DNA of 64,000 nucleotides from Luteolibacter sp. (GCA_051252155.1 JBPOGB010000002.1:297125-361124); one strand, 5' to 3'; counted from the stretch's first letter, positions 53,358 to 63,317 are shown. The notes: generated by a model not told the origin, from the sequence alone. Program-made: numbers and translations.

Positions 53358-56300
53358 ATGATTCGCTGGTTCGCCAAAAACGATATTGCCGCCAATTTCC
53401 TACTGTTCGGGATCTTGGCGTGGGGTGCGTGGTCTGCGGTGGAGAAGGTAGCGCTTGAGGTGCAGCCGGCCTTTGAGCAGCAGAGGATCGAAATACGCGT
53501 GGAATACCGGGGTGGCAGCCCGGCGGATACGGAAAAGGCGGTAGTTATACCCGTTGAGGCGGCACTGGAAGGGCTTTCTGGGGTGGAGATGGTGGAGTCA
53601 CGGGCGGGAGATGGAGGTGCAAAGATTACGGTATTTTCTGAATCCAAGTCGGGTCTAAAAGCGCTGCTTGAGGAAGTGAAGACGCGGGTGGAGCGCATTA
53701 ATTCCTTTCCTCCGGAAACTGAGCCGCCCGAAGTGCGAATTCCAGACAGCAGCCGTTGGTTTGATGTGATCAAGATCGCCGTCAGGGGTGATATGGGGGA
53801 GGAAGACTTACTGCGCGCGTCTCGCAAGGTGCGCGATGATTTGATCGCCATGCAGGGTATTTCCCAAGCGATCGTGTTAGGAAGCTCGCCTTTGGAAATT
53901 TCCATTGAGGCGGATCCTCAGCGATTGCGTGATTTTGGGCTGACTTTTGCGGATCTATCTTCGGCGATTCAGAGATCCTCGATAGATCTTCCGGCGGGTC
54001 GTATCCAGACTGATGAGGGTGCGCTGACGATTCGTTCTAAGGGGCAGGCCTACACGCGGGAGGACTTTGAAAGTATCGTGATCAAGAATCGGAGTGGTTC
54101 CGAGGTGACTGTTGGCACGGTGGCGACGGTTACTGACGGCTTTGAAGAGGAGAAAAAGATCATGCATTTTAACGGCAAGCGCTGCCTGCTTATCGAGGTG
54201 CTGCGGCTAGGCGATGAAAACGCGTTAGAAATTGCCGATAAGGTGAAAACTTATGTGGCGTCTGCACCACAGCGTTTTCCAGAAGGCATTTCGCTAGCGG
54301 TGTGGGACGATTCTTCGGAGGAACTGGAGGGTCGCTTGGGCACGCTGATGACTTCGATGCTTCAGGGCGGGTTGCTGGTTTTAATCGTGCTCGGTTTGTT
54401 TCTCCGACCTATGCTGGCGATTTGGGTGATTATGGGTATCCCGGTCGCCTTCGCAGGTGGCTTTATCATGATGCCTTACTTCGGCATCACCGCGAATGTG
54501 ATGTCCATTTTCGGCTTCATTATCGTGATTGGGCTGGTGGTGGACGATGCGATCGTCACTGCAGAAAATGTCTATTACAAGCTGGGCACTGGGATGGATC
54601 CTCTGGATGCGGCGACTGAAGGGACGGCAGAGGTGGCGACTCCGGTGACCTTCGGGGTGATCACGACCATCGTCGCTTTCGTGCCGCTGATGTTCTTCGA
54701 TGGGTTCTACGGATCTTTCACAAGGCAGATACCGCCTATCGTTGCTGCGGTGCTGATTTTCTCACTGATCGAGACGAAGTTCGCGCTGCCGTGCCATCTC
54801 AAGCATGTGAAGGTACACAGGAAGAGTTTGAATGGCCTTGAGCGAGTTCAGAAGCGTATCGCAGGAAGTCTAGAGAAATTCGTGGAAAAATTCTACGAGC
54901 CGACGTTGCGTATCGCGACAAATCACCGCTACATCACGCTCTCTCTATTCCTTGCGGTGGGCATGGCTTCGTTGGGTTATTTTACCTCAGGGAGAATGGG
55001 ATTTGTGAACATGCCTTCCATCGATAGGAATCGCATTTTCGCGATGGTTCAGATGCCTAGAGAGACGAAGATCGAGAAGACTGAAGTACGCACGCAGTTT
55101 GTGGCGGATGCGGTGGAGGAATTGAAGAAGGAGTTCATCGATCCAGGCACGGGTAAATCCGTAATTACGGATGTGCTTACGTCATCAGGTGGCTCGGCGG
55201 GTCGCAACAACATTGATCCAGATGAGGGATTTGTAGTGATAGGCATCACAGATCCGGGGAAACGTAGTGAACCGGGGCCGAAGAATAGCGAGATTGCCCA
55301 GAGGTGGACGGAGTTGGTGGGGGAAATGCCTGACGTGCGGAACTTTTATGTTTCAGGTGACCAAGGCCATGGCAAGGGTACAGACGATGAGCTGGAATCG
55401 CTGCAGGTGGAGATTCGTGGTCCGGACGGTGAGGATAAGGATGAGCTCGTTCGTGAGGTAGAGGAACTTATTGAATCGTATGAAGGTATCGCAGGTGCTT
55501 GGAGTAATTCTGGCGGAGATAGCGACGAACTTCTCATTACCATTCGCCCCGAGGGAGAGGCGTTGGGGCTGACGCAGCGTGAGTTATCACGTCAGGTGCG
55601 TGGTGCATTTTTTGGAGAGCAAGCGCAACGTGTGCGCAGGGAGAGGGATGACATTCGTGTGATGGTGCGCCTGCCGCTTGAGCAGCGTGAGTCACTTGCG
55701 ACACTGGAGACTTTGCGCATCCGCACTCCATCTGGAGGAGAGGCTCCGTTTTATACCGTGGCCACGGCGATTTATGGGAAAGCGCGGTCTAGAATTGAGC
55801 GGATCGATGGAGCGCAGGTTGCTTCTGTGGCCGCGAAGCCGGTTGATGAGACGGTTGATGTGGTGGCTATCTCTCGAGCCCTTGCGCCTGAGATCGACAA
55901 GCTTGTGAATCAACACCGTGACCTTTCATGGCGTTACCGTGGCTATGTGGCGGATCATGAAGAGACGAAGAAGCGCTCGCTCTATGGTGGGCTGGCTCTG
56001 TTCTTTGTATTGTATGCGCTGTTGGCGATACCTTTCCGTTCGCTCTACCAACCGTTCTTCGTGATGCTGGCCGTACCCTTCGGTGCGATTGGCGCGCTCT
56101 TCGGGCACATTTTATTAGGCATTACGCCATCTTACCTCTCGATTTTCGGAATCCTTGCGCTGGCGGGTGTGGTGGTGAACGACTCGCTGGTGATGGTGGA
56201 TTTCATCAACAAGAAAGTCCGTGCAGGCGAGGATCTCAGGACGGCAGTGATTGAGTCCGGGACAAGGCGTTTCCGTCCTATCTTCCTGACGTCGCTTACG

Positions 56301-56564
56301 ACTTTCGTGGGACTGTTACCCTTGCTGTTTGATCGATCCCTGCAGGCGCAATTCCTCATTCCGATGGCGACCTCGCTGGCATTCGGTATTCTGTTTGCGA
56401 CGGCGATTACGCTCTATTTGATCCCCTCTGCCTATGTGGTAGCTGAGGAAATCCGTGAACTACTAGGAAAGGCGTGGGTCTGGTGGCGTTACCCAGGTGG
56501 GCGTCCGGAAAAAGAAACACAGCCCGAGGAAAGCGTTCCAGGGGCTGCGGTGGAAGAGGTGTGA
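53358..56564 (+). CDS. RND efflux transporter permease (AcrB/HAE family)
   Basis: 1068 aa with a 12-TM, two-large-loop layout and typical motifs (MIRWFAKNDIAANFL..., GLVVDDAIV, VVNDSLVMVDF). Confidence 0.9.
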   Translation: MIRWFAKNDIAANFLLFGILAWGAWSAVEKVALEVQPAFEQQRIEIRVEYRGGSPADTEKAVVIPVEAALEGLSGVEMVESRAGDGGAKITVFSESKSGLKALLEEVKTRVERINSFPPETEPPEVRIPDSSRWFDVIKIAVRGDMGEEDLLRASRKVRDDLIAMQGISQAIVLGSSPLEISIEADPQRLRDFGLTFADLSSAIQRSSIDLPAGRIQTDEGALTIRSKGQAYTREDFESIVIKNRSGSEVTVGTVATVTDGFEEEKKIMHFNGKRCLLIEVLRLGDENALEIADKVKTYVASAPQRFPEGISLAVWDDSSEELEGRLGTLMTSMLQGGLLVLIVLGLFLRPMLAIWVIMGIPVAFAGGFIMMPYFGITANVMSIFGFIIVIGLVVDDAIVTAENVYYKLGTGMDPLDAATEGTAEVATPVTFGVITTIVAFVPLMFFDGFYGSFTRQIPPIVAAVLIFSLIETKFALPCHLKHVKVHRKSLNGLERVQKRIAGSLEKFVEKFYEPTLRIATNHRYITLSLFLAVGMASLGYFTSGRMGFVNMPSIDRNRIFAMVQMPRETKIEKTEVRTQFVADAVEELKKEFIDPGTGKSVITDVLTSSGGSAGRNNIDPDEGFVVIGITDPGKRSEPGPKNSEIAQRWTELVGEMPDVRNFYVSGDQGHGKGTDDELESLQVEIRGPDGEDKDELVREVEELIESYEGIAGAWSNSGGDSDELLITIRPEGEALGLTQRELSRQVRGAFFGEQAQRVRRERDDIRVMVRLPLEQRESLATLETLRIRTPSGGEAPFYTVATAIYGKARSRIERIDGAQVASVAAKPVDETVDVVAISRALAPEIDKLVNQHRDLSWRYRGYVADHEETKKRSLYGGLALFFVLYALLAIPFRSLYQPFFVMLAVPFGAIGALFGHILLGITPSYLSIFGILALAGVVVNDSLVMVDFINKKVRAGEDLRTAVIESGTRRFRPIFLTSLTTFVGLLPLLFDRSLQAQFLIPMATSLAFGILFATAITLYLIPSAYVVAEEIRELLGKAWVWWRYPGGRPEKETQPEESVPGAAVEEV

Positions 56565-56569
56565 ATTCC

Positions 56570-57007
56570 TTATGCCGCTTCGCCTTGTGCCTGGATCATG
56601 ACGCCAGCAAGTGTGGTGTATGTGATTGTCCAAGCTTCTTTGGCTTCAGGGGTGAATTCCTCGCCAAGGCCTTTTGCTAGGGTGTCGAGAAGTGCTGCGC
56701 CGACGGTATCGTAGTGCTCAGGCTTCACACCGTAGCCGTTGTGGCGTTTGCCAAGAGCGGCGACGGCGGGCACGAGTTCGCCAAGCGAATCGAGGCCCTT
56801 CACGGCGGCTCCGATCATCTGCATGAGCTTCTTGCCCTGCTCTTTCATGTCGGAGTTTGCGAAAAGCGGTTTCACGGAGGGATCGAGTTCGAAGAGCTTG
56901 CCGTAAAATAGGGTGGCTGCGGTGTCTGCGATAGGCACGACCTTTTCCCAGCTGCCTTGGACGAGTTCTTTTTGATGTGTGGTCAATGGACCGGATTCTG
57001 TGCTCAT
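56570..57007 (-). CDS. Single-domain globin (no signal peptide)
   Basis: 145 aa. LTTHQKELVQGSWEKV...LFYGKLFELDPSVKPLF...LGKRHNGYGVKPEHYDTVG fits the 3-on-3 bacterial globin pattern, with the proximal His in GKRH. Confidence 0.8.
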   Translation of the reverse strand: MSTESGPLTTHQKELVQGSWEKVVPIADTAATLFYGKLFELDPSVKPLFANSDMKEQGKKLMQMIGAAVKGLDSLGELVPAVAALGKRHNGYGVKPEHYDTVGAALLDTLAKGLGEEFTPEAKEAWTITYTTLAGVMIQAQGEAA

Positions 57008-57047: not shown

Positions 57048-57455
57048 TTATTTGGGGGTTGCGATCATGTAGAGGACGGCGTTTGTGACCTCTATGTCGG
57101 TGAGCGAGGGTGTGCCACCGCGTGCGGGCATTTCCCCGTCTTCGCCGTTGAAGCCGTTGATGGCATGGGAGATGAGAGTGGGTTCTCCTTTCTGAATGCG
57201 TTCCTCCCACTCGTCCTTGCGGGTGAGTGCGGGGGACGCCTCCTCGCCTTCGTTGTGGCATAGCGAGCACTCCGCCATATAGATCTCGCGCCCGGCGAGG
57301 AGCGCAGGATCATCAGGGATCCAGTCCCAGGGTTCCGGGTGCTCTTCCTTTTCAGGAGTGGAAGGCGCCCCGGCATCCTGTCCGCCTTTTTGGCAGGATG
57401 CGGATATGAAAACGCAAATGCAGGCGGACAGGATGACAGGGAACCGTAATTTCAT
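57048..57455 (-). CDS. Mono-heme class I cytochrome c lipoprotein
   Basis: It has a lipobox (FISASC), the heme site CSLCHNEG and a distal EMPARGG Met segment. Confidence 0.8.
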   Translation of the reverse strand: MKLRFPVILSACICVFISASCQKGGQDAGAPSTPEKEEHPEPWDWIPDDPALLAGREIYMAECSLCHNEGEEASPALTRKDEWEERIQKGEPTLISHAINGFNGEDGEMPARGGTPSLTDIEVTNAVLYMIATPK

Positions 57456-57464
57456 GATCAGGTG

Positions 57465-58085
57465 TTAGTTGCCGGTTGGTATGCGGATGACGATGCCTCC
57501 CATGACGTCGCCTTTTTTGAACTCAGGAAAGGATTCCTGACGGTTTTCGTGCTCGTTGTGGCACACCCAGCAAGCGGGGGCGACGGCGCGATCCGGGTAG
57601 ATGCCGACGAAGTATTCGGTGCCGGCGATGGTCTCGGTGCTTGTCCACTTCTTGCCGTAAAATTCGCTGTCAGGATCGGAAACAGCGTCAAGGCCTTCCT
57701 CGACGGCGGGCGTCTTTTTCTTGGCATTCTCCATGTTGAGCGGCCACTTGGACTGAAGGGAGTAGGAGAACTCGAAGGGCTTCTCCGAGGCGTCCACTTC
57801 CTCCGCGCCTTCGCGGAACATTTGTGCAGGGAGAAGAAGGGCTTTTTCCTCCTGCCATTCTTCATGTGCCTTGATCACGCCTTCCTCATTGACGAGGCGG
57901 TTGACGACCTTGCTGGCGTAGACCTTGCGGTCGGACTTGAGGACGGTGTAGAGGGCTTCCGCCACCAGTTCCGCATCGTATCCGCCTGAGGTTGAGGCTT
58001 CGGCTTCTTTTTTCCCGCAGGAGCTGAGGCTCCCGAGGGCTATCGCTGCGGCCGGTAGGGCGGCCCATGTGTATTTCAGTTTCAT
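57465..58085 (-). CDS. DUF3365 (Tll0287-like) c-type heme lipoprotein
   Basis: It has a lipobox (LGSLSSC) and a C-terminal CWVCHNEHEN...GDVMGGIVIRIP typical of DUF3365 heme proteins. Confidence 0.7.
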   Translation of the reverse strand: MKLKYTWAALPAAAIALGSLSSCGKKEAEASTSGGYDAELVAEALYTVLKSDRKVYASKVVNRLVNEEGVIKAHEEWQEEKALLLPAQMFREGAEEVDASEKPFEFSYSLQSKWPLNMENAKKKTPAVEEGLDAVSDPDSEFYGKKWTSTETIAGTEYFVGIYPDRAVAPACWVCHNEHENRQESFPEFKKGDVMGGIVIRIPTGN

Positions 58086-58097
58086 TGTATTCTGTTT

Positions 58098-59537
58098 CTA
58101 TTTGGTTTCGTTCGCTGGTTCAGGGTTTTCAGTGGGAGAGGATTCTGCGGAGAGGCTTTCGAGGTAGGCCTTGAGCTCAATGATGCGTTCGTCGCCGCGT
58201 GAGATGGCGGCCTCTGCGGCCATGTCGATGCCGCCGTGGTGGGCAGAGGGATTGCCGGAGAAATTGGCACCGATGAGCTTGGTGTCGGCCATCGAGTCCA
58301 TGGCGAACTGCATGCCGTGGCATTCAATACAGACGTTCTGGAGCATCTTGTCGTTTGGTGTGAGGTTGGCGTTCTGGTTGTGGTTTGGGGCGAAATGCTT
58401 GCCGTCTTTCTCACGTGGCATGTGGCAAGTGGCACAGGATACGCCGGTACCGGGAGCACCTGTTCCGGCTAGCTCGGCCTGCCAGAGCTTCGCGTGCGGC
58501 GAGGTGGCGTAGTTTTTCGTGTGTTCGTCGTCGTGGCATTTCACGCAGGCCTGCTGTGCGGCGAATTGGCGATCGGTTGTGTGCGGGTCGTGGCAAGAGC
58601 TGCAGGAGAGCGCATCGTGGGCGGCTGATTCCTTCATCGGGCGGCGCGCCTCGGCAGGTGTCATTGGCGGCAGGTTGGGGAAGTTGAGGCGCATACCGTG
58701 TTTACCTTTGAGGAAACCTTCGACCTCGCCGTCGTGGCAGGAGGCACAGGAGGTGTGGTCGGGCTTTTCGATCCATTTCTCGCCTTCGCCATGGCAGTCC
58801 GTGCAGTTGATGCCGGCGGCGGCGTGGGCGCTTTCGTGCCATGAGGCGTTGATCTCCGGGGTCTTGGATTTTGCCGGGGCGTCGGCCTCTTCGGGTGCGA
58901 GGGGGGGGCGTGCGGTATTGCCATCGGCGATCCAGCGGGCGAGCGCGAAGGTGAGTGGGACGGTTTGTTCTTCGAGATTCGCTGGCTCCGCGTAGTGCTT
59001 GCGCAGGAAGCTCGGCGAGAGCATGCGGTTGTCGTGGTAGTTGTGGCAGCCGGTGGTGGCGCAAGAGTTGAAGGGAAGGGATTTGTGCGAATCGAGGTTC
59101 TCCAGAGTCATTTCATGACAATGGGCGCAGTAGTCAGGCGGGATGGTGACGCCCATGTCGCCGGTGATCTTCTCGTTGTGCTCGCGGTGGCAGGTGACGC
59201 ACTGCAAGGCATCGATGTGTTGGGTGAAGATGGCGTTTTCCGGGTTCTTGAATTTCCGGACGGGGTGTGAATCGCTGGCGGCTTCGAGGTCTTCGCTATG
59301 GCATTTGTTGCAGGATTTGTTCGAGACGCCGGAAGCGGTGAAGATGTTTTCTTGAGGCTCTTGGTCGTGGCAGGCTGAGCATTCCAGCTCGATCTGGTAG
59401 TGGCCGTGGGTGGTCTTGCCGGGGAGGAAGGCGGACTTGTCATCCGACTCTTTCAGGACATAGCCGTAGTATACCGCGATGGCTGCGGTAAGTAGCAGCC
59501 ATAGGGCGGGGGTGATGATTTTCCGGGGACGTATCAC
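58098..59537 (-). CDS. Membrane-anchored multiheme cytochrome c (10 CxxCH + 1 CxxxxCH)
   Basis: The start is reassigned to the GTG at 59537-59535, which shares one base with the upstream TAG (TAGTG). It has an N-terminal TM helix (ITPALWLLLTAAIAVYYGYVL). The heme motifs are CSACH, CNKCH, CVTCH, CAHCH, CATTGCH, CTDCH, CASCH, CSSCH, CVKCH, CATCH and CIECH. Confidence 0.8.
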   Translation of the reverse strand: MIRPRKIITPALWLLLTAAIAVYYGYVLKESDDKSAFLPGKTTHGHYQIELECSACHDQEPQENIFTASGVSNKSCNKCHSEDLEAASDSHPVRKFKNPENAIFTQHIDALQCVTCHREHNEKITGDMGVTIPPDYCAHCHEMTLENLDSHKSLPFNSCATTGCHNYHDNRMLSPSFLRKHYAEPANLEEQTVPLTFALARWIADGNTARPPLAPEEADAPAKSKTPEINASWHESAHAAAGINCTDCHGEGEKWIEKPDHTSCASCHDGEVEGFLKGKHGMRLNFPNLPPMTPAEARRPMKESAAHDALSCSSCHDPHTTDRQFAAQQACVKCHDDEHTKNYATSPHAKLWQAELAGTGAPGTGVSCATCHMPREKDGKHFAPNHNQNANLTPNDKMLQNVCIECHGMQFAMDSMADTKLIGANFSGNPSAHHGGIDMAAEAAISRGDERIIELKAYLESLSAESSPTENPEPANETK

Positions 59538-61549
59538 TAGTAGAGGTAAACGGAGAGAATGTGGAAAACGAGGAGCGCGGGTAGCGGCCAGAAGAGGACG
59601 AAATGCGCGTAGGTGAGCGCCGGGCGGATACGGCGTGCGCGCAGGGCGAGGTCTTCGCTGCCTTTGCTTTCGAGGGCGGAAATGATGCCGGCGAGGGCGC
59701 CGAGGAGGTTCAGGCCGACGAATGAGAACATGAGCCAGAAGTTCAGGTTGTCCCCGAAGCGGAAGCCGGTGTGGGCGAAAAGAACGATGAGGGCGATGAC
59801 GCCGAAGACCGCGTGGAAGACACGCCATTTCGCGAAGTGGCCGAAGCGGAACCACTTGAAGCGTTTGCGCAGGGAGAGAAGAAGTCCAACTAGGCAGAGG
59901 GCGAGCAGTGAGTAGCCGGTGATCTGCTTGATGAGATTGTCTCGCCAGATTTCATCGATTTTATACCACCATGATTCCACAGAAGAGGCCATCGCGGGCG
60001 GGGCGAGAAAAATGGTCAGCAGGACGGCGATGAGAGCGATGGCGGAGGCGCTAATGAGCGAGCGATAGGCGATGGGGCGTGAGGTTTCTGCTTCAGGGTT
60101 GCAGAGTTTTTCTATCAACGGGCGGCAGGATCCGCAGACGGTGGAGGCACCGCAGCCTTTGGCGACTAGATCAGGATCGGCTCCGCACTTCGTCATGCAC
60201 TCCATGATCTCGCCTTTGCGTACGGTGAGGCAGTTGCATACGATGCGATCGTCCGGCCAGGCGTCGATGGAAGGCTGTTCGACGACGAGCTGTCCGGTAT
60301 TAGCGAACTCCAAGAGCTGTTTTTTAGGGATGCGGATTTTGCCGAGGAAGAGGCTTTGGATTTCCCCGGCTTCCGGCCACTCGCCGACGCCGAGTGCGCC
60401 GACGAGCTTGTGTTTGTGGTTGTAGCAGATGAGCCGGTAGGAGCTGGCGCTGGAGAATTCGATGGTGGTTCCCTGCTGGAGCGGGGAACCGATGGATACA
60501 ACATCGGCACCAGCCATCTTGAGGCGGGTGGAGAGATCAGGTGGCGGGAGGGATTCCACGGTTTTCCCTGCGATTATTTCGGCCAGCAGGGCGGCCATGG
60601 CGTAGCCGGGCGCGGCGAGGCCGTAGATGCGGCCATGTAGCTGAGCGCACTCGCCGATGGCGAAGATCGAGGGATCCGAGGAGGTGAGGAAATCATCGAC
60701 GATGATGCCGCCGCGCATGCCGAGCTTGATACCGGACTCCTTGAGGAAAGCGGTGGCCGGGACGATGCCGGTGGCGACCATGATCATGTCTGCGGTCGCT
60801 GAGGTTTTGTCTTGGAAACCGACGGTGAGTTTGCCGTCTTCCTCTTGCTTCAAGGTCTTACTGGCCTTGAGGTAATTGATTTTGATGCCTTTTTCGCGAA
60901 CTGTCTGGTCAAGGCGTTGGGCAGCGGATTGGTTCAGTTGCTGAGGCATCAGGAAGGCGGAGCGTTCCATGATCCGAGCTTCCATGCCGAGATCGCGTGC
61001 CACCTGTGCTGCCTCAAGCCCCAGCAGCCCGCCGCCGATGATCAAGGCCGAGGATTTACCTTCGGCATCCGAGATGATGCCCTCCATATCCTTGATGGTG
61101 CGGTAAACATGAATTCCAGGAACTGGCTGATCGAAGGGTGCAGGGACGAAGGGACGTGATCCGGTGGCGATGACCAGATAGTCGTAACAAAAAACCTCGG
61201 TTCCGTTGGTGTGGACGGCTTTTAGTTCGCGGTCGATATTTGTGGCAGCAAGCCCGGTGTGGAGGGTGATTCCATTTTCAGTGAACCAGCTGCGAGCTTT
61301 GAGTTCGAGCTTCGCGGGATCGCGGTGGGAGGCTAGATCGGAGAGATGGATGCGGTCGTAGGCGGGTTGCGGTTCATCCCCGACGACATCGATGGAGCAA
61401 TGGTTTGTGAGTTTCAGCTGCGCGAGATGCTCGCAAAATTTCTGACCGACCATGCCGTTGCCGAGGACGACAATGCGTGTTCCCGCCTTTGGTCGGTCGA
61501 GCCGAAAGGTGCGTGCCTTGGGCTTTATGGTTCGTGCAATGATGCTCAT
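59537..61549 (-). CDS. NirB-N-terminal-like FAD/NAD(P)H oxidoreductase + BFD-type [2Fe-2S] domain fused to a 5-TM bis-histidine (ferric-reductase/cytochrome b-like) membrane domain
   Basis: It has two dinucleotide folds (VVLGNGMVGQKF, LIIGGGLLGLEAA) and FAIGECA. The BFD motif is CNCLTV...GCGASTVCGSCRPLIEKLC. Five C-terminal TM helices follow, with FHAVFGVIALIVLFAH and AHFVLFWPLPALLVFH (each His-x13-His). Confidence 0.8.
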   Translation of the reverse strand: MSIIARTIKPKARTFRLDRPKAGTRIVVLGNGMVGQKFCEHLAQLKLTNHCSIDVVGDEPQPAYDRIHLSDLASHRDPAKLELKARSWFTENGITLHTGLAATNIDRELKAVHTNGTEVFCYDYLVIATGSRPFVPAPFDQPVPGIHVYRTIKDMEGIISDAEGKSSALIIGGGLLGLEAAQVARDLGMEARIMERSAFLMPQQLNQSAAQRLDQTVREKGIKINYLKASKTLKQEEDGKLTVGFQDKTSATADMIMVATGIVPATAFLKESGIKLGMRGGIIVDDFLTSSDPSIFAIGECAQLHGRIYGLAAPGYAMAALLAEIIAGKTVESLPPPDLSTRLKMAGADVVSIGSPLQQGTTIEFSSASSYRLICYNHKHKLVGALGVGEWPEAGEIQSLFLGKIRIPKKQLLEFANTGQLVVEQPSIDAWPDDRIVCNCLTVRKGEIMECMTKCGADPDLVAKGCGASTVCGSCRPLIEKLCNPEAETSRPIAYRSLISASAIALIAVLLTIFLAPPAMASSVESWWYKIDEIWRDNLIKQITGYSLLALCLVGLLLSLRKRFKWFRFGHFAKWRVFHAVFGVIALIVLFAHTGFRFGDNLNFWLMFSFVGLNLLGALAGIISALESKGSEDLALRARRIRPALTYAHFVLFWPLPALLVFHILSVYLY

Positions 61550-61759: not shown

Positions 61760-62554
61760 CTAAGCGAAAAATTCCACAAGCGCTTCCACAACGCCGTGTC
61801 CGGCAGTCCGCTGCGTGACCATGCCGCCGCGTGATTCGACAAGGGTGCGGATGTCGGCGACAGCGTTGATGGGGCAAGCAGCGAAAGCGGAGTGATCTGC
61901 AGAGAGCATCTCGATGTCGTTGTGGCTGTCTCCTGCTGCGAAGGTGTGCTCGGTGCCGAGTTCGTAGAGGCGGGCAACTTCTGACAATGTACTGCCTTTC
62001 TGGTAGTTCTTATGGCCGAAGCGGAGGTAGATCGAGTTTCGCTGCCAACCGAGATTTGGCACTTCTGCAACGATCGGGGTGATGTGAGCGACGATCCATT
62101 CCATTTCCTCCTCGGTGCGCGAGATGAGTCCAGCGGGTTCGCCATCGATCTCAATGTATTGCGCCCCTGTGTGTTCTTCAATCTCGTGACGGATGACTTT
62201 GAGGGTCTTCTTCGCCTTTTTGAAAAGCTTGTGGATGTCCTTCTCGCAGCGCTTGTTCCAGTCATTGTGCGGGAGGTAACGGCCGAAGCTGTTGGGGAAA
62301 TGGATTTCCCGCTCACGGGCGACCACCCAATCTGGGATGAATGGGAAATTGCTCTCGATGAATCCCTCGACGAGCTGTGGCATCGAACGGCCCGTGTTGA
62401 TTCCCCAGACGGCGTTTCGAGTTTCGCGCAGGCGGCGGATAGTCTCGAAGAAAGATGTGGGGACGGGTGGGTTGTCTGCAGGGTCATGCAGCGTGCCATC
62501 GAAATCGAAGGAAAGGATCAGTTCAGGCTTCGGGCAGGCGTCCAGCGTTCTCAC
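61760..62554 (-). CDS. HAD-IIB (Cof/SPP-like) family phosphatase
   Basis: It has the DxD motif ILSFDFDGTL and downstream GINTGRS and GDSHNDIEML motifs. Confidence 0.8.
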   Translation of the reverse strand: MRTLDACPKPELILSFDFDGTLHDPADNPPVPTSFFETIRRLRETRNAVWGINTGRSMPQLVEGFIESNFPFIPDWVVAREREIHFPNSFGRYLPHNDWNKRCEKDIHKLFKKAKKTLKVIRHEIEEHTGAQYIEIDGEPAGLISRTEEEMEWIVAHITPIVAEVPNLGWQRNSIYLRFGHKNYQKGSTLSEVARLYELGTEHTFAAGDSHNDIEMLSADHSAFAACPINAVADIRTLVESRGGMVTQRTAGHGVVEALVEFFA

Positions 62555-62599
62555 GAGGGGAAGCTACAGGGAAACGGGCGGGGGGCAAGGGCGGGGGCA

Positions 62600-62697
62600 A
62601 GGAGAAGGGTCCGTCTCGGCCCTAGCGAAGAATCCGGATTTGCATCGGCTCTTCGAAAAGATCTATCCTCTGCTAGAGCCGGGACGGACTCTTCTCC
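62600..62697. repeat. REP doublet 1: 26-nt REP in inverted orientation (62600-62625 and 62672-62697)
   Basis: GGAGAAGGGTCCGTCTCGGCCCTAGC versus GCTAGAGCCGGGACGGACTCTTCTCC. By hand count 23 of 26 positions are complementary, and the spacer is 46 nt. Confidence 0.8.
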
Positions 62698-62699
62698 TT

Positions 62700-63317
62700 A
62701 TGTTCCTCGATCCTGAAAAGCCCATCGACAAACGAAAGGGAAATTTGCCGCACTGGCATCAGGACGATACGTGGGTTTTCGTTACTTGGAGGCTAGCGGA
62801 TTCGTTGCCTGAGGAAGTGGTCGCGAAGATTTCAAACGAAAGAGAAGAGTGGGAAAGGTCTCATCCGAAACCTTGGGACTCGGAAGACATGAAGGAATAC
62901 AACCGGCTTTTTACCCTTCGTTTCGAATCGTTACTCGACGATTGCCACGGCTCATGTTGTTTGCGTGATCCGATGGTGAGGAAGGTTGTCACCGGTTCGC
63001 TTCATCATTTTGATGGGGATCGATACGATCTCGATTGCTATGTGGCGATGCCGAATCACGTCCATGTGCTCTTCTCGATTCGCGAGGGTCATTCGCTTTC
63101 GGAAATCATGCATGGTTGGAAAAGTTTCACTGCGCATGAAATTCGGAAGATCATTGGAGGCGAGGGAGCGTTGTGGCAGCGCGAATATTGGGATCGGCTG
63201 ATGCGCTCGCAGAAGCATTTTGATTGGGTGAGGAGGTATATTGAGGAGAATTCTGTGAACCTTTCGGAGGGGAGTTTTGATTTTTACGATAAAGAGAAGG
63301 GTTCGTCCCGACCCTAG
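62700..63317 (+). CDS. REP-associated tyrosine transposase (RAYT, IS200-like Y1 transposase family)
   Basis: The ATG at 62700 gives a 205-aa protein. The HUH motif is PNHVHVLF and the Tyr segment is GALWQREYWDRLMRS. The stop codon TAG lies inside REP copy A2. Confidence 0.8.
   Translation: MFLDPEKPIDKRKGNLPHWHQDDTWVFVTWRLADSLPEEVVAKISNEREEWERSHPKPWDSEDMKEYNRLFTLRFESLLDDCHGSCCLRDPMVRKVVTGSLHHFDGDRYDLDCYVAMPNHVHVLFSIREGHSLSEIMHGWKSFTAHEIRKIIGGEGALWQREYWDRLMRSQKHFDWVRRYIEENSVNLSEGSFDFYDKEKGSSRP

Follow-up and report, generated by a model that had tools for sequence, protein, structure and literature searches.

A candidate transmembrane NADH-to-heme conduit from Luteolibacter: a flavoprotein-[2Fe-2S]-cytochrome b fusion co-encoded with an undecaheme cytochrome c

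The principle of a transmembrane conduit that connects NAD(P)H to heme is already known. To our knowledge, few systems move cytoplasmic NAD(P)H electrons to the outside without using the quinone pool, among them the bacterial NOX proteins, the Fre-MsrQ pair, in which Fre is the cytoplasmic donor of MsrQ, and the DsbD-type thiol relays. Proteins of the NOX/FRE type (NOX2, NOX5 and SpNOX, composed of Ferric_reduct, FAD_binding_8 and NAD_binding_6 domains) carry electrons in one chain from NAD(P)H through a flavin to two bis-His b hemes across the membrane. Here we analyze a 64,000-nucleotide stretch of Luteolibacter sp. DNA (GCA_051252155.1 JBPOGB010000002.1:297125-361124, below called the window), in which the first gene of a five-gene cluster (gene 1) follows the same logic in a different architecture. 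In its product, a flavoprotein module and a BFD-like [2Fe-2S] domain precede a membrane domain with two pairs of invariant histidines, and the next gene (gene 2) encodes a cytochrome c with eleven heme motifs. We think it probable, though by no means assured, that the gene 1 product is a membrane-bound NADH dehydrogenase sending electrons out to a periplasmic chain of heme c proteins, likely for nitrogen oxides.

The resemblance to the NOX/FRE proteins extends to the placement of the histidine pairs, which lie on transmembrane (TM) helices 3 and 5 and are separated by 13 residues, in NOX as is generally known and in gene 1 as read from its sequence. The differences are substantial. The gene 1 dehydrogenase is N-terminal and has the disulfide-reductase/NirB fold with two dinucleotide-binding domains rather than a C-terminal FNR-like fold, an additional [2Fe-2S] step is present, the membrane domain has five rather than six TM helices, and electrons probably go to a multiheme cytochrome c instead of O2 or Fe(III). 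A second set of comparable proteins, the membrane modules of the DUF4405/FezC/PepSY_TM/MsrQ type (Huang et al. 2024, PMC11334425), are likewise small and helical; they deliver electrons to periplasmic partners, and their four central histidines may have a counterpart in the four invariant ones of gene 1. Heme b binding has been shown for one recombinant DUF4405 protein, from an Oscillospiraceae (PMC11334425). These modules, however, stand alone or are tied to flavinylated (ApbE) partners and usually have a separate or unknown cytoplasmic donor, whereas in gene 1 the NADH dehydrogenase and the Fe-S domain are fused to the membrane domain. The described DUF4405 also has six TM helices (PMC11334425), compared with five in gene 1.

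The cytoplasmic part of gene 1 has its counterparts in NirB and the NasB/Flp-type flavoproteins, with which it shares the FAD/NADH module and the BFD [2Fe-2S] domain as well as, in several lineages, a neighborhood of NrtABC, NasT-type or nirB genes. In the narK-bjgb-flp-nasC cluster, too, a flavoprotein is co-encoded with a single-domain globin. Gene 1 differs from NirB in that a predicted membrane cytochrome b domain takes the place of the siroheme/[4Fe-4S] half, so that electrons would leave the cytoplasm. Gene 2, for its part, finds its only matches in sequence and fold in the superfamily of reducing HAO-like proteins, octaheme nitrite reductases and NrfA, from which it is set apart by its eleven hemes, its N-terminal membrane anchor, the lack of a CxxCK motif and the lack of an obvious open site. 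It would also draw on NADH through a flavocytochrome b rather than on quinol through NrfH or NrfBCD or on soluble cytochromes.

We found no description of the fusion or of the operon in the literature, although our coverage was incomplete and this is an absence of evidence only. The set and order of the modules, an Fe-S relay that links flavin to heme, the membrane domain for which no model exists, the obligatory multiheme partner and the conserved five-gene operon all appear to be undescribed, and the fusion probably represents an undescribed bacterial route by which electrons of cytoplasmic NADH cross the membrane. The system is self-contained, with a dehydrogenase, an Fe-S relay and two predicted hemes in one chain.

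Domain architecture and spread of the fusion

Gene 1 and its parts are as follows.

59537..61549, minus strand, stop codon included: gene 1, flavo-[2Fe-2S]-cytochrome b fusion, 670 residues (open reading frame confirmed)
60320..61480, minus strand: FAD/NADH dehydrogenase module, predicted to be cytoplasmic, residues ~24-410 (Pyr_redox_2, Pyr_redox, Rubredoxin_C and the NirB model)
60104..60244, minus strand: BFD-like [2Fe-2S] domain, residues 436-482 (Fer2_BFD with Cys438, Cys440, Cys472 and Cys475)
59540..60076, minus strand: C-terminal membrane domain with five TM helices, a predicted di-heme b module, residues 492-670 (hydropathy, AlphaFold2 (AF2) model and conservation)

A sequence-only reading of this DNA had placed a flavoprotein of the disulfide-reductase/NirB type at the N terminus of the protein, and the family searches bear it out. 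Residues 25-306 match Pyr_redox_2 at 1.6e-49, with further matches to Pyr_redox (1.5e-14) and Rubredoxin_C (5e-5), and residues 26-488 align with the first 470 of the 794 positions in the NirB model TIGR02374 (9.4e-111, 371.6 bits), which is the best NCBIfam match of gene 1. That best match, together with the name "nitrite reductase (NADH) large subunit" that JGI gives to several homologs, would speak for a plain assimilatory NirB large subunit whose hydrophobic tail has no redox role. We find this scarcely credible, since no more than positions 1-470 of the model are matched, the score falls short of the model cutoff of 578 bits, and NIR_SIR_ferr and NIR_SIR, which make up the siroheme/[4Fe-4S] half of NirB, have no match in the domain scan of gene 1. 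Gene 1 as a plain NirB is therefore ruled out by its domain content; a true NirB encoded at one of the loci described below (L094) does have the siroheme domains.

The nucleotide-binding motifs of the dehydrogenase are intact. GxGxxG motifs lie at residues 30-35 (FAD) and 172-177 (NAD), and in the homolog alignment Gly30, Gly32, Gly172, Gly174 and Gly177 are invariant and Glu195 is kept in at least 90% of the sequences. Glu195 occupies the end of the NAD β2 strand, where a glutamate in Rossmann folds goes with a preference for NADH; this position and its conservation suggest that gene 1 prefers NADH. The BFD domain, likewise proposed by the sequence-only reading on account of a CxC...CxxC pattern, stands as well. 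Its match to Fer2_BFD is weak (1e-3), the four cysteines (Cys438-x-Cys440 ... Cys472-x-x-Cys475) are invariant across homologs, and Fer2_BFD is a precomputed Pfam domain in many of these. The domain ends ~15 residues ahead of TM1, which would hold the Fe-S cluster at the inner face of the membrane.

The fusion is common and occurs in several phyla, among them Verrucomicrobiota and Planctomycetota that are abundant in the sea, yet current annotation calls it an "FAD-dependent oxidoreductase". A homolog search with gene 1 returned 7709 proteins at E <= 1e-5, presumably for the most part flavoproteins without the membrane domain, of which we aligned the best 120 clusters; nearly all of these are full-length, at 39-87% identity. 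A profile search with the membrane domain retrieved 885 clusters (50% identity) at E <= 1e-3 and 358 at E <= 1e-30. In all 150 matches listed the domain ends at the C terminus of the protein, and ~80 of the 150 measure 630-711 residues, the length of the full NirB-type fusion. Named sources include Luteolibacter, Roseibacillus, Akkermansiaceae, Phycisphaeraceae, Pirellulaceae and Omnitrophota, with further cases in Chromatiaceae, Spongiibacteraceae, Microbulbifer and Pseudazoarcus, and the closest named relative of gene 1 is that of Luteolibacter sp. AS25 (62% identity). For the protein of the window itself, a look-up by exact sequence gave no entry.

Some matches of ~225 residues (P0121, P0157, P0169, P0176, P0213, P0214 and P0227) comprise the last part of the BFD domain and the membrane domain. 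We set aside the idea that they form a stand-alone architecture, because they begin at or inside the CxC motif and are probably truncated gene calls.

The membrane domain and its histidine pairs

Hydropathy analysis places five TM segments in gene 1, at residues ~497-517, 543-561, 576-596, 604-626 and 646-668, and the helices of the AF2 model concur. Ahead of residue 492 the protein has no hydrophobic segment, which would leave its flavoprotein part in the cytoplasm. The two helices with a His-x13-His spacing that the sequence-only reading had pointed out are both present: FHAVFGVIALIVLFAH, on TM3, contains His579 and His593, and AHFVLFWPLPALLVFH, on TM5, contains His649 and His663, with 13 residues between the members of each pair (codons at 59813-59815, 59771-59773, 59603-59605 and 59561-59563, respectively). 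Shuffling of the 186-residue membrane domain, which has five histidines, produces at least two H-x13-H pairs in 0.3% of cases. Conservation is the more decisive evidence that the pairs exceed chance. The four histidines, together with the four cysteines of the BFD domain, are invariant in 118-120 of the 120 homolog clusters, whose identity goes as low as 39%, with truncated sequences as the exceptions, and the non-ligand His571 is freely substituted.

Other positions of the membrane domain are equally constrained. Arg561, Lys562, Thr594, Gly595, Pro655 and Pro657 are invariant in the same alignment save for one or two truncated sequences, as are Gly545, Gly583, Gly617, Gly621 and Arg576. Three of these glycines lie on the helices that are free of histidine: TM2 has Gly545, and TM4 has both Gly617 and Gly621. 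In cytochromes b, invariant glycines are expected where the porphyrins pack against helix backbones. The AF2 model of the domain (pLDDT 89.7, pTM 0.83) consists of the five TM helices and a short surface helix, with a kink in TM5 at WPLP, an invariant motif that contains Pro655 and Pro657.

With the N terminus inside, the loops at residues 562-576 and 628-643 hold six and five Lys/Arg residues, respectively, compared with two and one in the outer loops, so this topology obeys the positive-inside rule, by which basic loops stay in the cytoplasm. Five helices would then leave the C terminus of gene 1 outside. In the same topology TM3 and TM5 run parallel, with His579 and His649 three to five residues from the inner helix end and His593 and His663 three to five residues from the outer end. 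The depths of His579 and His649 and of His593 and His663 would thus match, as two bis-His hemes, one inner and one outer, would require. A comparable two-plus-two arrangement is found on TM3 and TM5 of NOX and on helices B and D of cytochrome b.

Placing the domain in a family is less straightforward. Gene 1's own membrane domain has no Pfam match better than E 0.1, and a profile of 36 diverse membrane domains has no match among PDB sequences. When the 36 members were scanned singly against Pfam at E <= 1, 13 matched DUF4405 (PF14358; best 8.7e-4), eight matched Ni_hydr_CYTB (PF01292, the prokaryotic b561 family; best 4e-4, 20.5 bits against a gathering score of 30.1) and four matched Ferric_reduct (PF01794; best E 0.014), while PepSY_TM and DUF4079 were each matched by single members. 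These five families belong to one Pfam clan of di-heme membrane cytochromes. The DUF4405 alignments, with a top score of 19.5 bits among ten singly scanned members against a gathering score of 26.7, fall on TM2-TM3 and include both histidines of TM3, and the Ni_hydr_CYTB alignment spans profile positions 13-162 of 179, almost the whole membrane domain. The comparison with Ferric_reduct, DUF4405 and b561 that the sequence-only reading had singled out therefore gives weak matches to all three, every one of them below its gathering score. The domain is probably a distinct family within the di-heme cytochrome b superfamily for which no model exists, and it merits one of its own; the weak hits favor a position nearer to DUF4405 and b561 than to the ferric-reductase domain of NOX.

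Taken together, the invariant histidines, the topology, the confident fold and the di-heme family signals support the core of the sequence-only reading, in which an N-terminal NirB-type flavoprotein and a BFD domain would feed a membrane conduit with two bis-His sites. Its label "NOX-like" is an analogy: the two histidine pairs lie on TM3 and TM5, 13 residues apart, but gene 1 itself has no Ferric_reduct match, and the weak signals lean toward DUF4405 and b561.

The undecaheme cytochrome and the conserved gene neighborhood

The fusion gene is followed directly by gene 2, whose GTG start codon overlaps the stop codon of gene 1 (TAGTG).

58098..59537, minus strand: gene 2, undecaheme cytochrome c, 479 residues, N-terminal TM anchor (motifs; Cytochrom_c3_2 2.7e-17)

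Its heme motifs, ten CxxCH and one CxxxxCH, are all invariant in 46 homologs, and the hemes are closely spaced after the single N-terminal TM anchor. In current annotation this partner of the fusion goes by the name "cytochrome c3 family protein" or by the misleading "NrfA". Because gene 2 contains no CxxCK motif and the 46 homologs share 12 invariant non-motif histidines for the 11 hemes, a catalytic site is not evident. The CxxxxCH motif, residues 159-165, reads C-ATTG-CH and begins with a Cys codon at ~nt 59061-59063, and the adjacent Asn166, His168, Asp169 and Asn170 are invariant in the same homologs.

Searched against the PDB, the gene 2 profile matches octaheme nitrite reductase (TvNiR, 5e-10), NrfA (1e-8) and ONR (1e-7), in alignments that fall largely on the last two hemes, as well as NrfH faintly (E 0.054), and the family scan of gene 2 has no match to Cytochrom_NNT (the NapC/NirT family). 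The structure model has a pLDDT of 74, with 80-90 in the C-terminal half, and Foldseek returns only HAO, reducing HAO-like proteins, TvNiR and NrfA, the best match being 6t5e at E 1.3e-3 with a low TM-score of ~0.28-0.29. Gene 2 thus appears to be distantly related to HAO, ONR and NrfA. Since oxidizing HAOs are among the structural matches, electrons might conceivably run the other way, with the HAO-like cytochrome oxidizing a periplasmic substrate and electrons passing inward to reduce NAD+. We consider this extremely improbable. Judged by standard potentials, donors at the level of hydroxylamine or NO would be unable to reduce NAD+ (-320 mV) without an input of energy, inward electron flow would oppose the membrane potential, and the family scan of the five-gene cluster finds no energy-coupling module.

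To place the pair in its genomic setting, we collected 23 loci with the membrane domain, of which 22 have downstream DNA. A scan of genome contigs whose search patterns included GGGLLG[LI]EAA found the fusion in seven of 80 loci, the rest being mainly true nirB, and a metagenome scan gave nine loci. In each of these 22, which come from Verrucomicrobiota, Planctomycetota, Omnitrophota, Gammaproteobacteria and Betaproteobacteria, the fusion gene is immediately followed by a multiheme gene. Among the 23 loci a gene for a Tll0287-like protein follows in 18, a globin in 14 and a cytochrome c in eight, so that the cytochrome c is a variable member of the cluster; none of these neighbors is found beside true nirB (0 of ~70 loci). 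In the window, the Tll0287-like, cytochrome c and globin genes are separated from the genes before them by 12, 9 and 40 nt, respectively.

57465..58085, minus strand: gene 3, Tll0287-like (DUF3365/sCache_heme) heme c lipoprotein, 206 residues, one CxxCH (PF11845 2.2e-13), with a lipoprotein-type signal (…LSSC) whose lipobox is read from sequence
57048..57455, minus strand: gene 4, class I cytochrome c, 135 residues, lipoprotein-type signal (…SASC) (Cytochrome_CBB3 4.8e-11)
56570..57007, minus strand: gene 5, single-domain globin, 145 residues, no signal peptide (Globin 1.9e-20)

Promoter and terminator scans, which were otherwise uninformative, detect no terminator on the minus strand within the block of five genes, and Rfam shows no regulatory RNA upstream of it.

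The gene order bears on a quinone-coupled alternative, in which the b hemes would pass NADH electrons to quinone as a novel NADH:quinone oxidoreductase and the multiheme protein would serve as a separate quinol dehydrogenase of the NapC/NrfH kind. Ni_hydr_CYTB, whose members HyaC, FdnI and CybB have quinone sites, ranks among the top two of the weak matches of the membrane domain and aligns with almost all of it, and gene 2 has a single N-terminal anchor, closely spaced hemes and a faint match to NrfH. Against this, the strict adjacency of the two genes in 22 of 22 loci and their stop/start overlap favor a stoichiometric complex over transfer through a pool, the two-plus-two histidine pattern spans the membrane, which would be needless for a quinone at the inner face, and Cytochrom_NNT has no match. 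We therefore regard quinone coupling as rather unlikely.

The globin raises a second alternative. Gene 5 resembles the N-terminal domain of Hmp (positions 4-137 of the flavohemoprotein model NF009805, 2.2e-23), and the flavoprotein could chiefly be the reductase of this cytoplasmic globin, a split flavohemoglobin like Flp/Bjgb in which the membrane domain serves as an anchor or regulator. In Bradyrhizobium (B. japonicum) the NasST-controlled narK-bjgb-flp-nasC cluster provides the precedent, in which a single-domain hemoglobin and a flavoprotein of the FAD/NAD(P)H type protect against NO from nitrate assimilation (PMC4724949), and an Hmp-like globin accompanies the fusion in 14 of the 23 loci. 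It is, however, absent or not adjacent in L005, L029, L085 and L086 despite enough downstream DNA, whereas the multiheme cytochrome is never absent, and a mere anchor would need neither four invariant histidines nor invariant glycines on the partner helices nor invariant prolines. This division of labor accordingly strikes us as improbable.

In several lineages the surroundings point to nitrogen oxides. An NrtABC-type transporter and a porin adjoin the operon in Phycisphaeraceae (L003), Chromatiaceae (L005) and Spongiibacteraceae (L006), and the transporter ATPase at these loci passes the nitrate-transporter NCBIfam cutoff. A regulator with REC-ANTAR (NasT-type) or ANTAR domains adjoins L005, L010 and L093/L094, and at L094 a genuine nirB, with NIR_SIR_ferr and NIR_SIR domains, is divergently transcribed. 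In Pseudazoarcus (L010), the leader between the ANTAR regulator gene and the flavocytochrome gene contains a sub-threshold Rfam match to the narK RNA (31.4 versus 43.2 bits; L010:985-1065, plus strand). A sub-threshold match to the Pseudomonas small RNA P11 (30.1 versus 70 bits; L005:15982-16130, plus strand) lies upstream of the porin-nrtA genes in Chromatiaceae. Both the narK RNA-like and the P11-like match could be antiterminator targets.

Other neighbors may relate to heme. In Phycisphaeraceae (L003:11773-12333) a gene of the Chlor_dismutase family comes after the globin and the cytochrome c gene is missing; in Omnitrophota (L002) the operon is followed by genes for cytochrome c maturation (ResB/CcsA) and for a glutamyl-tRNA reductase; and at L008 the next gene looks, from its N-terminal sequence, like a 5-aminolevulinate synthase. 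Together these neighbors suggest a link to heme supply.

The same membrane domain is also found behind other dehydrogenases. About 12 clusters (P0193, P0222 and P0384-P0395) have a BFD domain with FAD_binding_6 and NAD_binding_1 (FNR-like) ahead of it, and among them P0193 carries three cyclic-nucleotide (cNMP)-binding domains and P0222 a pair of EF-hands as N-terminal extras. The histidine spacing is preserved in both. These FNR-like variants are a literal "reversed NOX", found in rare relatives and not in the window. The P0193 gene (L086:6001-9042) is followed by a gene for a 517-residue multiheme cytochrome, so the pairing survives the exchange of the dehydrogenase. The EF-hand and cNMP variants recall the logic of NOX5, which is switched by Ca2+, in a permuted domain order. 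That likeness and the shared path from NAD(P)H through flavin to two hemes would fit a NOX-type oxidase whose outer heme reduces O2 to periplasmic superoxide. Such an activity seems very unlikely to us, given that a dedicated cytochrome c partner is always adjacent, even in the cNMP/FNR variant, and that the other two family signals are both stronger than Ferric_reduct. More generally, the interchange of NirB-type and FNR-type dehydrogenases, with or without EF-hand or cNMP domains, offers a natural setting in which to study the assembly of transmembrane heme conduits.

Two side observations concern the FNR-like proteins. P0396, a partial protein from a Planctomycetota metagenome-assembled genome, has the same BFD and FNR-like module ahead of a NO_synthase oxygenase domain (4e-156), and we take it to resemble the Sorangium-type bacterial nitric-oxide synthase. 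JGI names P0222 "nitric-oxide synthase", a further tie between this module and NO.

A proposed path for the electrons

The domain composition, the invariance of the ligands, the topology logic, the gene order and the genomic links to nitrate and nitrite genes are the observations on which we build a proposal for the path, and from them we infer cofactor binding, the direction of electron flow, the formation of a complex and the substrate. NADH would reduce FAD in the cytoplasmic NirB-type module, from which single electrons would pass to the BFD [2Fe-2S] cluster at the inner face of the membrane, then to the inner heme b (His579/His649) and on to the outer heme b (His593/His663). The likely acceptor is the co-translated, membrane-anchored undecaheme cytochrome c, the product of translationally coupled gene 2, and neither O2 nor Fe(III); it would in turn serve the heme c lipoproteins (Tll0287-like and cytochrome c), a periplasmic substrate, or both. 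The quinone pool would be bypassed. As electrons move outward, with protons released inside and consumed outside, the proton-motive force would be dissipated, and since the membrane potential would be spent rather than built, a role in reduction, detoxification or assimilation would be expected in place of respiration. The most likely task would be the handling of periplasmic nitrite, NO or hydroxylamine, with the cytoplasmic globin dealing with NO inside the cell and perhaps taking electrons from the same flavoprotein as a second acceptor.

Several results weigh against this proposal. The 12 spare histidines for 11 hemes could mean that all gene 2 hemes are bis-His ligated and that the protein is a wire rather than an enzyme. 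No match of the membrane domain to a di-heme family reaches the gathering threshold. A Foldseek search of the PDB with the membrane-domain model returns a talin rod as its best match (E 0.17) and neither NOX5, FoxB, CybB nor FdnI, although for an all-helical membrane bundle we would take this null as uninformative instead of as counter-evidence, and hhalign of the domain profile against the single E. coli MsrQ and YodB sequences, a weak test, gives probabilities below 1%. Stand-alone Tll0287-like proteins have been judged to be redox proteins and not NO binders or sensors (bioRxiv 10.64898/2026.02.01.703092). Finally, the 64-kb window contains no nitrate or nitrite genes, and most Verrucomicrobial loci likewise have none nearby; the link of the operon to nitrogen oxides is therefore suggestive and dependent on the lineage.

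A more far-reaching version of the proposal, which we put forward tentatively and do not expect to hold in full, is that the NirB reductase half and the di-heme membrane domain use cytoplasmic NADH to power directly a periplasmic, HAO/NrfA-related undecaheme reductase of nitrite, NO or hydroxylamine under NasT control, with sister forms switched by Ca2+ or cyclic nucleotides, and that together they make up a widespread class of electron exporters, independent of the respiratory chain, that has not been named. If nitrogen oxides are indeed reduced in this way, aerobic heterotrophs would possess an unrecognized route of nitrite and NO turnover, and "nirB" and "nrfA" calls in metagenomes would have to be read differently.

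Outside the cluster, two features of the window deserve mention. An open reading frame of 1068 residues (53358-56564, plus strand) is convergent with the end of the globin gene and, by its sequence, looks like an RND (AcrB-type) efflux pump; in Spongiibacteraceae (L006:14855-17995, minus strand) an open reading frame of 1046 residues occupies the equivalent position downstream of the globin. An inverted repeat at 62599-62699, with 35-nt arms that are 83% complementary and a 31-nt spacer, lies just upstream of a HAD-hydrolase gene and inside or adjoining an open reading frame (62292-63317, plus strand) with an IS200-like Y1 transposase domain (4.5e-10), with which it may form a REP/RayT-type element.

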